From a bacterium (GTDB lineage: Bacteria > UBA8248), in the NCBI GenBank assembly GCA_965200245.1, contig CBDATS010000005.1:704001-768000 (forward strand): 64,000 bases of DNA. The letters are read 5' to 3'. Below are positions 26,586 through 30,138 of the stretch, in pieces (positions within the stretch are counted from its first letter, which is position 1; the number at the start of each line of letters is the position of its first letter). The notes beneath the pieces are model-generated. The model had not been told where the DNA came from and did no database searches. It worked only from the letters and a program-made list of their open reading frames with translations. The position numbers were made by a program, and so were the translations under genes.

Positions 26586-27279
26586 CGGAATCTCTCCGCT
26601 CGCTGAATGGTTTGAGACTCAACCTATCTGCGTGGACACCGGGGGTCAAGGGGGAATTCTCCATCGGGTGGACTGGAGGAGGTTCTCGCCGATCCATGAG
26701 GTCGGCCTGCTTCGGCGCGGAAAACCGCCTTGCGCGGCCTGGTTCATATGTCGGTTGGTAGTTGCGGGTTTCGCTTCCATTTCATCGGTGCGCCGGTTTT
26801 TTCATCCGGCGCTTTCTTGTAGTGAGTGACTAAATGTTTCGAATGCTTAAATTCGCCGCGTAGCTGGTGCCATCGCTTCTCAACGCTCCCGGCGGATGAA
26901 TGCACGAGACCCAGTTCTGTCTTCCCTTTCAACGCATCCCCTATCTTTATCGTGCGCCCGGCAACACGCGGAAGGCGAGCGGTGCCTGTGCCAAGCGTTA
27001 CACCCTCCATCACCCTTGCGCGACTATAGTCAATGCATGATCATTTCAATGGGACACAACCCCAAATTCCGCTGATGGTCGATCCTGATATCGGAAAGTC
27101 ATGTAACCGTAAGTTCTTTCGAAACTTCTTAGATAATTTGGAATTTTGGAGACTCGCGAGAAACAAGAGTATCTTCCTTATGACCCTAGCACAATGAACG
27201 GAGTGTTAGATGTATATACAGGGAAGAAAAGTACCGTATCCAGAAAATAGGGATTTATATACAAAAGTCTGCACAGGTA

Positions 27280-27447
27280 CTACATTTTCTTCAATTCCCA
27301 CCTTTCCATATTGCCTTCCAGCTTCCATTTCTGATCCAGTTCTTCGCGCGAAGGCGTACGCTTTTCCAGATTCTCTTTCCGAACTTCGCGTAGCAGAATA
27401 TGCTTTACCGCATCTTCAAATTGCTGTTTTGTAATTTCTTCATTCAT
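27280..27447 (-). CDS. Small hypothetical protein (55 aa) in the AT-rich islet
   Basis: MNEEITKQQFEDAVKHILLREVRKENLEKRTPSREELDQKWKLEGNMERWELKKM*, with a purine-rich RBS. It is divergent from the repeat-protein gene. Confidence 0.55.
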   Translation of the reverse strand: MNEEITKQQFEDAVKHILLREVRKENLEKRTPSREELDQKWKLEGNMERWELKKM

Positions 27448-27573
27448 TTTTGGATATCCCCTGTTCTTGAGGGAACTTGCCGTATAAATAAGTAGAGGAT
27501 TAGTAAATCTTGGTTTTATTCCAAAAGGAGTTTTGGAGTAAGATCAGAGAGGGATGTAAAGGAGACCAATATC

Positions 27574-28550
27574 ATGAGTGAATCAGAAAAGGTCGAGTAC
27601 CAAGTAGTCGATGGAATCAAGTATACGTTTGTTAATGGTGAGAGAAAGTATCAATATGAAGATAATTATGACACAGTAAAGATTAGAGTGGGTCTTGAAG
27701 GCGATGAACTTGAGAAATTCGAGAAACACTTGAAAGGGAACAATGGGAACCCGAGGGGCTGACCGGCGACCCACGCTCACCTGATGTCGAGGTGAGAAGG
27801 CAATTTTTCAGGCATTTTTACGATACGGAGGAAGAGGTCGAAGCCAATGCGAATCGAAAATTCCACATCCCGAGAGCACTTTATGAATGGTTGTATTGGG
27901 CTGAGGCTGTACCCGACGCTCCTGATCTGTCAAACCTAATGAAAATACAAGAATCTCTTTATGAGAAATCTCATGCTCCTAAGACTTTTAATGAATTCAT
28001 GAAATGGGTGGAGAGTCAGCCCAGCACTCCTGATCTGTCCCATCTTAGAAAGGCATATATTGAGGAGGCGGAGGATCCGGAGAGTTGGATTGGGTACAAA
28101 AATGAACTTTCAAATTGGTTGTATTGGGCTGAGCGTTTACCAGGTACCCCCGATCTGTCAAACCTAAAGGAAATACTGTCAGTATCTCTTTATGAGAAAT
28201 TTTACGAGGACAAGTTTTTTGGTGAGTTCATGGAATGGGTAGTGAGTCAACTCAACACCACTGATCTGTCCCGTCTTAGAGAAGCATATAAAGAGGAAAT
28301 GGCGAATCAGAAATACATCGCATCTAAAAAAATCTATGAATGGCTACTTTGGGCAGAGGATGTACCAAGCACCCCCGATCTATCAAACCTAAAAGAAACA
28401 CAAGAATCTCTTTATGAAGAATCTCTTTATATGGGCTATAATGACTCGAAGACTTTTGATGATTTCATGGAATGGGTAGAGAGTCAGCCAGATGCTCCTG
28501 ATCTGTCCCACCTTAGAAAAGAATATCAAATCCAATCGGACAAAAAATAA
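27574..28550 (+). CDS. Hypothetical W/PDLS tandem-repeat protein, split by a probable frameshift near 27730
   Basis: AAAGGAGA RBS before ATG 27574. The second ORF's frame is open from 27714 and overlaps the first ORF. There are three ~76-aa repeats. Confidence 0.65.
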
Positions 28551-28589
28551 GTTTTAGAGATGGGATAATTAAGAAAAACTGGTTTGGAC

Positions 28590-29829
28590 GAGTTACTGTC
28601 AAATCCGGTGTACGGCCGTCCCGAGTCCGGCGGCCTCCCTGCCCGTTTCGTTTTCCTTCACCCCATCGGTGAACCTCACGTCGGCGATCACGTCTGCCAG
28701 GCAGTGGAAGCCGTTCAGCCTGCGCCACCGCTTCTGCGCACTCATGGCGAGCCGGTGCACGGGACCGGGCGCCGTCCTCCCGCTCAGGCAGTTCCCCGTC
28801 TTCGCCGTACACAGCCGGATGGTGGCGAAGGTCGACTCGCGGGGATTCGTCGTCCGCAGATGCCTCCGGTGGGCTGCGGGGAAGTCGTGGAAGGCGGGCA
28901 GTTCCCCGCGGTCCCCCGCCAGGCATTCCGCAACCCTGGGATACTTCGCCTCCCGGGTGGCGGGGAAGCGTTCGAACGCCCCGTGCGCGTTCCGCCGGGT
29001 GTCGGAGCGCCATATCCCGTGCAGCATCGACTTCGCCTCCTCCTGCACGCGTCCGGGCATCCTGTCGGGCACGTTCGCCGTCCTGTGCACCCGGCAGCGC
29101 TGTCCCCGGGTCTCGGGATACACCTCGGCCAGGGCCGACCGGAACCCCGGCCCCCCCGTCGCCCACCGCCGGCCCTGCCGCCTTCACACCCCGGTCCCTT
29201 GAACTCAGAAGAACAGCCTTCCAGCTCTCCCTCGACTCGCGGAACCCCGCCTCCAGGGCCAGGAAGTGCCTGCGACCACGCGTGTCGCAGCCCACTGCCA
29301 CCAGGAGACACCTTCTCTCCCCGCTGCGCACGTTCACGCAGATCCCGTCCCCTCCCCGGTCGCGCTCGCGCCACTGGGCGTACCCGCGTTCCCGGCCCTC
29401 CTTCAGCCGCGCAACCGTCGCCGGGGACAGGCCACGCGCCGACCCGAAGTCGTTCGTTGACACCCCCTTGCACCGGAACCAGGGAATCACCGCCTCCACA
29501 CGCCCCGTCTTCTTCAGGCAGGGGGGCAGCAGCTCCGGGCGGAAGCACCGGCCCGCGGCGACCCCGGGCGTCGCGCGCGGCCTCGTGCTCCTCCGGGAAG
29601 TCCCGCAGTTCCGCCTCCACCGCCTGGCGGATGATGCGCTGCGCGCCCGCGCGCAACAGTTCACTCAGTTCGTCCCGAAAGGCTGGATTCACGAAGGGAA
29701 CCGTCGTATCTTCCTGCATGGTGGTGCATCTCCTCCTTGCTGAATGACCGGGCTTCCAACAAACCCGGTTCAGCAGGAATGCGCCGCCTTCTTCAATTCA
29801 GCCCCATACACCAGATCCGACAGTAACTC
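28590..29829 (-). mobile_element. IS256-family insertion sequence with a degenerate transposase
   Basis: 26-bp TIRs (GAGTTACTGTCAAATCCGGTGTACGG vs revcomp GAGTTACTGTCGGATCTGGTGTATGG) and a 9-bp direct repeat GGTTTGGAC at 28581-28589 and 29830-29838. Tnp motifs 'QAVEAEL', 'KGVST', 'RES..SW', 'GDG' and 'HLRTTNP.ESTFAT' are spread over three frames. Confidence 0.95.
28599..29719 (-). pseudogene. IS256 (mutator-type) transposase pseudogene
   Basis: Starts MQEDTTVPF at 29719 after an AAGGAGGAG RBS. It has at least two frameshifts and short internal deletions. Confidence 0.9.
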
Positions 29830-30138
29830 GGTTTGGACTTTTGCATATAATTCTCAATCAATGGGATAGGATCGCAGGGTGATCACCATGCACGGTCAAA
29901 CTCTTTTACGATTATGCGCGACAAGCCCAGTAAACCTCCGGCAAGGTCTTCAAAACGCGGCCAAGGACGAGTAATGAACTAGTTCTTGGTTTATTCGTCG
30001 AAAGTTGAACCCGCGCGCTGGACATATTCATGCAACAAATTGCGGAAGAAGACAGCCTCGCCCTGCGGACACCTATCGAGCGAGCGATCAAGTAGAACCG
30101 ATTATATTCCAGCCGAAGACTCCGGCAAATAACCTGCC

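Follow-up and report, generated by a model that had tools for sequence, protein, structure and literature searches.

Insertion sequences (ISs) of the IS256 family carry terminal inverted repeats (TIRs) and are flanked by target duplications of 8-9 bp. Neutral decay in bacteria is generally AT-biased. The element described here lies at positions 28590 to 29829 (minus strand) of a 64,000-nucleotide stretch of a bacterial genome (hereinafter referred to as the window; G000:C5:704001-768000, G000 being the genome, assembled as 3.68 Mb in 15 contigs at 96% completeness and 8% contamination). It is a 1240-bp, non-autonomous IS256-family element with 68.6% GC and a minus-strand transposase remnant. 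With IS256 elements and miniature inverted-repeat transposable elements it shares a PF00872 remnant, ends of about 26 bp, a 9-bp duplication and movement without an intact transposase of its own. In contrast to ordinary dead copies, its interior shows a one-way, context-specific drift from A:T to G:C. No description of bacterial IS copies mutated in this direction was found in the literature searched.

In fungal repeat-induced point mutation (RIP), C:G is changed to T:A and duplicated copies are each mutated. The element resembles RIP targets in its directional transitions with a dinucleotide preference, which ruin a transposon gene, and every examined copy in a second genome (G061) was affected. 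It differs in that the change is A:T>G:C, gradual and inherited, that the copies are near-identical and that another repeat family was spared. ADARs have a 3' G preference, and the changes in the element are, as in APOBEC/ADAR editing, base-specific with a neighbour preference, including a 3' G preference for A>G; in contrast to such editing, they show neither strand-coordinated runs nor G depletion 5' of the changed A, and to our knowledge IS256 has no RNA step. In diversity-generating retroelements, the A of one strand may become any other base, whereas the element shows A>G only, on both strands. In the Vsr site of E. coli, CTWGG, position -1 is C and position +2 is G. Biased gene conversion in bacteria is the subject of Lassalle et al. 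(2015). The changes in the element likewise are transition-only, lead towards G:C and favour C at -1 and G at +2, and vsr genes were present in the genome; they differ in being limited to one mobile lineage, in the lack of a genome-wide motif skew and in the free choice of base at +1.

Direction of change in the element

Matches to the element were carried by 24 of the 61 genomes searched; these include G000 and 18 of its 22 congeners. The relatives' elements were about 1385 bp long and 73-80% identical to that of the window at the DNA level. All 13 that were extracted had 61.2-65.5% GC, and six of them contained frames of 421-422 amino acids (aa). A preliminary description of this DNA, made from the sequence alone, had reported a GC content far above the flanks. 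The contrast was found (68.6% against 41.3% in the left flank, 27001-28000; contigs 52-59%; 400-bp windows of G000 with a mean of 56.9% and sd of 5.0%), but the GC content of the relatives makes about half of it a family trait, the element standing 3-7 GC points above them.

Twelve relatives served as the ancestor proxy, L037 being left out for its ragged right end. At the 697 columns invariant in these 12, the element carried 66 changes, comprising 39 A:T>G:C, 14 G:C>A:T and 13 transversions, with per-site transition rates of 0.159 for A:T>G:C and 0.048 for G:C>A:T (p=1.4e-6); the one-way change at conserved residues claimed earlier is thus confirmed. Columns with at least 80% agreement gave 60 A:T>G:C, 28 G:C>A:T and 34 transversions. 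There, the transition rate per site was 3.9-fold higher towards G:C (60/364 vs 28/655, p=1e-10), whereas transversions differed by a non-significant 1.4-fold (W>S 8/364 vs S>W 10/655, p=0.46). Relatives scored alike against the other 11 mostly leaned the opposite way (e.g., 1 vs 18, 7 vs 17, 5 vs 17), with the exception of L042 (13 A:T>G:C vs 9 G:C>A:T).

The element was the most divergent sequence of the set, at 74-83% identity to the others, which were 77-94% identical among themselves. In a 118-sequence protein tree it was nested inside the family as a long private branch, 13 nodes from the midpoint root and beside P0002 (support 0.82). Where 79 distant homologues conserve a residue to 90% or more, the changed codons comprised 16 T>C and 11 A>G vs 6 C>T and 3 G>A, including five TGG>CGG (Trp>Arg). 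The polarity of change is fixed by this tree together with the residues conserved in distant homologues. A single-step amino-acid method gave 28 A:T>G:C vs 2 G:C>A:T for the element and 100 vs 72 for the 13 relatives pooled. The IS256 consensus used in the preliminary description matches real relatives, L033 containing both QRCWVHKTANVLDK and FYDFPAAHW.

No closer relative of the mutated lineage was detected in the 60 other genomes (best 79-80% DNA identity) or in a metagenome contig scan (5 loci, 47-71% aa identity). A 22-mer scan of species genomes returned only one chance 23-bp match (L072) and convergent copies in G061.

Sequence context of the changes

T>C changes were found at 35 of 118 sites with a 5' C and at 24 of 244 other sites (p=6e-6), on both strands, in agreement with the CT>CC / AG>GG enrichment described previously; a G at +2 has to be added to that context. 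Pooled over both strands, T>C changes affected 21/42 CTNG, 14/74 CTNH, 13/76 DTNG and 11/168 DTNH sites (CTNG vs DTNH, p=5e-10). C at -1 and G at +2 thus both favour T>C, their effects multiply, and the preference holds on each strand taken separately. A>G and T>C were interleaved and evenly spread along the element (runs test, P(runs<=observed) 0.61 to 0.99). The CTNG excess was missing from the private changes of relatives (12/539 vs 55/2226) and from dead fragments in G000 (4/50 vs 21/459).

Gradual change along the copying lineage

About a dozen further fragments in G000 were 72-97% identical to the element. The lineage that kept producing copies is referred to below as the trunk, and 16 dead G000 fragments, trimmed to their BLAST ranges, as twigs. 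Derived states of the element were shared stepwise by six fragments (16/18, 11/18, 4/13, 4/17, 8/33, and 0/8), and the change was therefore gradual. Private changes of the twigs comprised 34 A:T>G:C and 66 G:C>A:T transitions and 54 transversions, a spectrum different from that of the trunk (p=5e-6). Among the element, its relatives and the dead fragments of G000, the bias is seen in the element only. In unfavoured contexts, trunk and twig rates of T>C agreed (11/168 vs 21/459). C>T changes occurred at 24/469 vs 47/862 sites outside a 5' C, and at 4/186 vs 19/328 sites after it (p=0.07).

The eight fragments that had 86 or more scored columns and were at least 79% identical to the element were paired with it, and changes since the split numbered 2/3, 8/5, 7/7, 3/4, 9/6, 13/14, 25/26 and 8/5 (element/fragment). 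The sums, in which trunk counts overlap among pairs covering the same part of the element, were 75 vs 70 (p=0.74; 95% interval of the element share 0.43-0.60). All 16 fragments gave 108 vs 154, the excess coming from three distant fragments (11/35, 7/23, 6/17); five short ones gave 4/0, 1/2, 3/4, 1/1 and 0/2. The trunk was not detectably faster than the dead fragments, and an excess of 40% is compatible with the data.

A:T>G:C conversion is thus directional, context-specific, present on both strands and confined to the lineage of the element. The RIP-like mode proposed earlier does not fit: the copies are 99.8-100% alike, and the changes are inherited, accumulate stepwise along the ladder of fossils, are not clustered by strand and spare another repeat family.

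The same signature in a second genome

A genome labelled uncultured Rhodobacter sp. (G061) carries a 22-mer of the element within a different IS256 subfamily (approximately 47% protein identity). The sharing is convergent, EQRCWVHKTANVLG having become ERRRRVHRTANVPG relative to the intact homologues of the G061 subfamily itself. Among 93 matches in G061 to this subfamily, none exceeded 73% identity, and no intact copy of the affected subfamily remains. GC was 62-77% in 32 matched stretches, which came from 20 loci, and 56-62% in the flanks of two loci (L073 and L074).

At 339 conserved sites of copy L075, 84 single-step changes were counted, comprising 37 T>C, 35 A>G and only 4 G:C>A:T. Twelve copies each carried 19-70 A:T>G:C vs 2-8 G:C>A:T changes (479 vs 57 in total; several copies are near-duplicates, and the spectra are those of assembled letters). 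CTNG was again favoured, as raw counts read on the derived sequence and not normalised for opportunity. The same signature is therefore present in the 12 examined copies of G061, more strongly than in G000.

As a DNA pattern, the fully mutated motif RVHRTANVP occurred only in G061 and in none of 150 other genomes around it. IS256-family lineages were the only ones in which the signature was seen, in G000 as in G061. An rve-family IS in G061 had 7 matches, 5 of them with 324-aa open frames, and no decayed copies were found among them.

The heavily mutated IS256 copies of G061 (L075-L094) keep stop-free frames of up to 451-570 aa.

Structure, copies and setting of the element

The features of the element in window coordinates are as follows.

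28581-28589: left copy of the 9-bp target-site duplication, GGTTTGGAC, read directly
28590-28615, plus strand: left TIR, 26 bp, GAGTTACTGTCAAATCCGGTGTACGG; positions 17 and 24 are T>C relative to relatives
28599-29123, minus strand: C-terminal transposase remnant in a 174-aa frame holding QRCRVHRTANVPDR and FHDFPAAHRR (PF00872, E=6.8e-15, profile positions 245-351)
29140-29544, minus strand (G000:C5:733140-733544): middle transposase remnant in another frame, holding DGIC and VGDGG (PF00872, profile positions 88-238)
29145-29151: C7 run splitting the two frames; C6 in the C4 copy and in a contig of public run X1
29545-29554: junction of a 98-bp alignment gap; a GCGGCGACCC direct repeat flanks 78 extra bases retained in the C2 copy
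29546-29719, minus strand: N-terminal transposase remnant, residues 1-58, with the start codon at 29719 (tblastn)
29804-29829, minus strand: right TIR, 26 bp, reverse complement
29830-29838: right copy of the target-site duplication, GGTTTGGAC, matching the left copy perfectly

As in the preliminary description, the target duplication is perfect, and the left and right TIRs match at 22 of 26 positions, all four mismatches being transitions. The ruin of the transposase reported there was also evident: PF00872 (Mutator-type DDE transposase) was matched in two frames (E=6.8e-15 and 5.8e-9), separated by the C7 frame break, and six deletions relative to full-length relatives were found (98, 27, 24, 17, 14 and 8 bp). 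TIRs, 9-bp duplication and PF00872 thus place the element in IS256, while an intact single transposase frame is lacking; with autonomy lost through frame breaks, deletions and altered conserved residues, it is a non-autonomous derivative. The best intact homologues of its transposase (413-422 aa) were 72-73% identical. No intact transposase of the subfamily was found in the G000 assembly, other PF00872 genes there being only 26-31% identical. A single-copy IS256-like pseudogene (C15:151917-152837) had an unmutated look, as judged by eye.

Three near-identical copies of the element, 99.8-100% alike, were present in G000. The copy on contig C4 (G000:C4:705183-706421; 99.84% identity) has a single base difference and a C run shorter by one C; this C6 run fuses the frames into one of 354 aa, and it has no target duplication. 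The copy on contig C2 (C2:312692-313691) matches at 100% wherever both sequences are present; 76 bp are missing from it, and the 78 bp lost by the window copy between two GCGGCGACCC repeats are retained. Its right end is cut off, and there it runs on in frame into the first part of a DUF1156 gene, which lies in a defence-like island. With these copies and the further insertion junctions found in public reads, the suggestion that the mutated copy has still been moved is upheld.

The resulting fusion (G000:C2:312493-314307, minus strand; L129:6493-8307) is a 604-aa open frame consisting of the truncated element copy and an N-terminal DUF1156 domain. It adjoins ParA-like, Schlafen AlbA_2 and SNF2/NOV_C helicase genes in what looks like a disrupted defence island.

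The element sits at the margin of a locally AT-rich stretch. AT enrichment is described as general at IS niches in a passage of PMC13548323. The neighbouring genes are ordinary and encode a MaoC-like hydratase and an acyl-CoA dehydrogenase. A 252-aa frame at 27792-28550 (plus strand), in a stretch with 41% GC, contains repeated units of the form …PDLSNL…YEWLYWAE…F.EFM.WV.SQP… and had no Pfam match above the cut-off; the element is inserted about 40 bp past its stop. The DUF4143 remnant previously noted in the window could not be recovered, with no PF13635 match at E<=0.001.

In addition, eight 72-bp units in G000 each consist of two related IS256-like ends face to face. They are embedded in a repeat family whose copies measure approximately 0.7-1 kb and have up to about 20 matches each (83-100% identity, 50-57% GC). 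Their positions are given below.

C2:244182-244253
C2:305446-305517
C4:570850-570921
C4:1426743-1426814
C4:1517720-1517791
C5:329645-329716
C8:198572-198643
C15:316072-316143

The element in independent data

Public runs of two other studies yielded contigs with the element, and 9 raw Illumina reads of a further study also contain it, so that short-read data of others confirm the bases, as had been called for. These runs were sponge-associated. The public pieces matched the element without other letters, the exceptions being a single variant piece from run X1 and another from X4, both near the right end. Variants present in these data were C6/C7, the base by which the C4 copy differs (29725), 29706 and 29713 in X4, and 29763 in X1. 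The deletion form and further insertion junctions were also present, and loose ends lay at 29545 and 29564, around the junction of the 98-bp gap. Contigs of an RNA library (X6) also contained the element, where carry-over of DNA is possible.

Other repeats and candidate agents

A second repeat family of high GC content (69-72%) was found in G000 in the following copies, of which three are 100% identical and one approximately 85%.

G000:C4:1361421-1362957
G000:C4:1332605-1333859
G000:C4:1143746-1144825
G000:C5:390004-390912

This family had no Pfam match and did not occur in the 22 genus relatives. In an index scan for further CCNG-rich regions, the element copies were among the top windows; of 20 frames from other top windows, 16 had no Pfam match, three belonged to ordinary families (a GTPase and two AIRS-domain copies) and one had a sub-threshold match.

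No responsible enzyme was identified in G000 or G061. G000 contained two pairs of vsr and an m5C methylase gene (PF00145), located at C2:276589-277872 and C2:12734-14598. G061 contained one vsr, whose Vsr domain shared 61% identity with one Vsr of G000 and 48-57% with the others. Neither genome had a match to PF02137 (ADAR-type), a search that was silent in control genomes too. Of the PF00383 proteins, TadA and RibD occurred in both genomes, together with two TadA-like paralogues in G000 and with Cdd in G061; no additional deaminase of this family was common to both. For the adenine deaminases that the preliminary description had recommended searching for, two candidates turned up, the TadA-like paralogues of G000.

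The two paralogues, L097 (G000:C4:425191-425661, 157 aa) and L099 (C4:1063072-1063536, 155 aa), are of the CDA fold, occur besides a true TadA and score 85 and 79 bits against a TadA equivalog cut-off of 150.

Several general causes were set aside. The presence of vsr does not discriminate, since it was found in all five further genomes searched. Loss of mismatch repair was rejected because MutS and MutL are present, and a genome-wide drive was rejected for the k-mers checked. Polymerase error of the dislocation type was also rejected, as the remaining kinds of base change give no sign of the 5' neighbour being copied (C>T after T, 3/146). That transposition is mutagenic in itself is disfavoured, active multicopy relatives having no skew at synonymous sites.

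Apart from CCWGG, words depleted in G000 under a second-order Markov model were CTAA/TTAG (0.55), CTAG (0.64), GATC (0.68), AGCT (0.73), GTAC (0.75) and GGCGC (0.75). The depleted words, CCWGG included, may reflect restriction-modification or methylation motifs.

Discussion

The observation is real and stronger than the preliminary description stated. The element is a selection-free, non-autonomous IS256 derivative that was still mobilised in trans. As its cause we tentatively favour a directional processing of G·T mismatches to G:C on newly copied or paired copies, while rating it as somewhat short of probable. The G·T mispairs would arise when the element is newly copied, through copy-out replication errors, or in heteroduplex with a sister copy, and would be resolved towards G:C by a sequence-preferring T:G-mismatch enzyme of the Vsr, or very-short-patch, type. 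One passage in the literature has Vsr cutting 5' of the mispaired T. Such an enzyme would fix T>C and A>G and remove C>T, which would amount to a context-specific, transition-only, GC-biased conversion. The conversion would run unchecked because the dead gene is under no selection, and since A:T>G:C changes cannot create stop codons, long open frames persist. Mismatch processing is favoured because of the transition-only spectrum, the Vsr-like context, the agreement with background rates outside the favoured context and a hint that C>T is suppressed, the lower C>T rate after a 5' C on the trunk being what a two-way repair bias predicts.

Several results weigh against mismatch processing. G000 k-mers show neither CTNG loss nor CCNG gain (observed/expected 1.10 for CTGG and 1.00 for CCGG), and CCWGG is depleted there (0.81). 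The +1 base is not W, unlike in the E. coli Vsr site. Elements are normal in all four genus relatives searched for vsr, each of which has it. MutS and MutL frames were present in all five genomes searched, so that mismatches should normally be handled with strand discrimination. Two further sets of repeated DNA lack the signature: the second GC-rich family, the one other family tested (3-4 copies), has no CYNG excess (2/64 vs 17/218), and intact multicopy relatives in other genomes have no C-x-N-G skew at synonymous sites (0.75 vs 0.77). The suppression of C>T is weak. Finally, by a transversion clock the trunk has approximately 40% more transitions than the twigs (88/34 vs 100/54), which an added mutational process fits as well.

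Targeted adenine editing, the cause proposed in the preliminary description, is the next candidate. At 5'-C-N-A-G sites of either strand, a deaminase acting on IS256-type DNA or on its transposition intermediate would turn A into hypoxanthine, inactivating the transposase over repeated exposures. The part of the proposal that confined a directional process to the element stands, while adenine editing is one possible chemistry, for which no shared candidate enzyme was found, and we regard it as unlikely. A transition-only, context-specific change is as expected of a base-modifying enzyme, and the very pure spectrum in G061 (72 of 84 changes A:T>G:C and 4 G:C>A:T in L075), the restriction of the signature to IS256 lineages in both genomes, the loss of every intact copy of either subfamily, the extra trunk transitions by the transversion clock and the two TadA-like paralogues in G000 all speak for editing. 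Nevertheless, we know of no natural DNA adenine deaminase, and none was found in the literature searched; PF02137 gave no match (nor in the controls), and no extra PF00383 deaminase is common to both genomes. Furthermore, strand-coordinated clusters are lacking, the copies inherit their changes instead of being struck independently, and the lineage is not detectably faster than the dead fragments (75 vs 70). Nor is the hint of reduced C>T predicted by an additive process.

An improbable alternative is that the trunk evolved elsewhere, in another host or replicon with a GC-biased neutral spectrum, and re-entered G000 repeatedly, each insertion then decaying locally. About equal branch lengths of trunk and twigs with different spectra, the absence of such a bias from G000 itself and the additional insertion junctions in contigs of public sponge metagenomes would be in accordance with this. 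However, fossils of at least five successive stages occur in G000 alone, and no closer relative was found in the 60 genomes, the metagenome contig scan or the 22-mer scan. A genome-wide neutral spectrum with an eight-fold context effect would be unusual, and G061 repeats the puzzle, with copies at 62-77% GC against flanks (L073, L074) at 56-62%. That nothing special has happened, the element being a divergent GC-rich IS256 subfamily under ordinary decay or a sequencing or assembly artefact, is very improbable: the family is GC-rich anyway (61-65.5%), the C7/C6 run varies between data sets and the G061 copies are known as assembled letters, but the element is nested in its family on a long private branch, its changes strike residues conserved in distant homologues (five Trp>Arg included), controls by the same methods show no bias, and contigs of other studies and nine raw Illumina reads match it.

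It is doubtful, yet worth stating, that two unrelated genomes, at least one of them sponge-associated, possess a transposon-directed base-conversion system that changes A to G in the context 5'-C-N-A-G, on either strand of IS256-type elements, and so silences whole IS families without stop codons, as a prokaryotic counterpart of RIP and a natural editor of adenine in double-stranded DNA.

Dead elements with long open frames are called as proteins by gene callers. In G000, a dead mobile element gains GC by a sharply context-specific, transition-only process, while dead fragments of the same family in this genome do not. If T:G repair is the cause, this would be the first clean, polarised, within-genome case known to us of biased conversion reshaping a bacterial repeat, with a mechanistic signature that can be tested. 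If an adenine-directed enzyme is the cause, it would be a natural A-to-G editor of DNA and a genome defence of a new kind.

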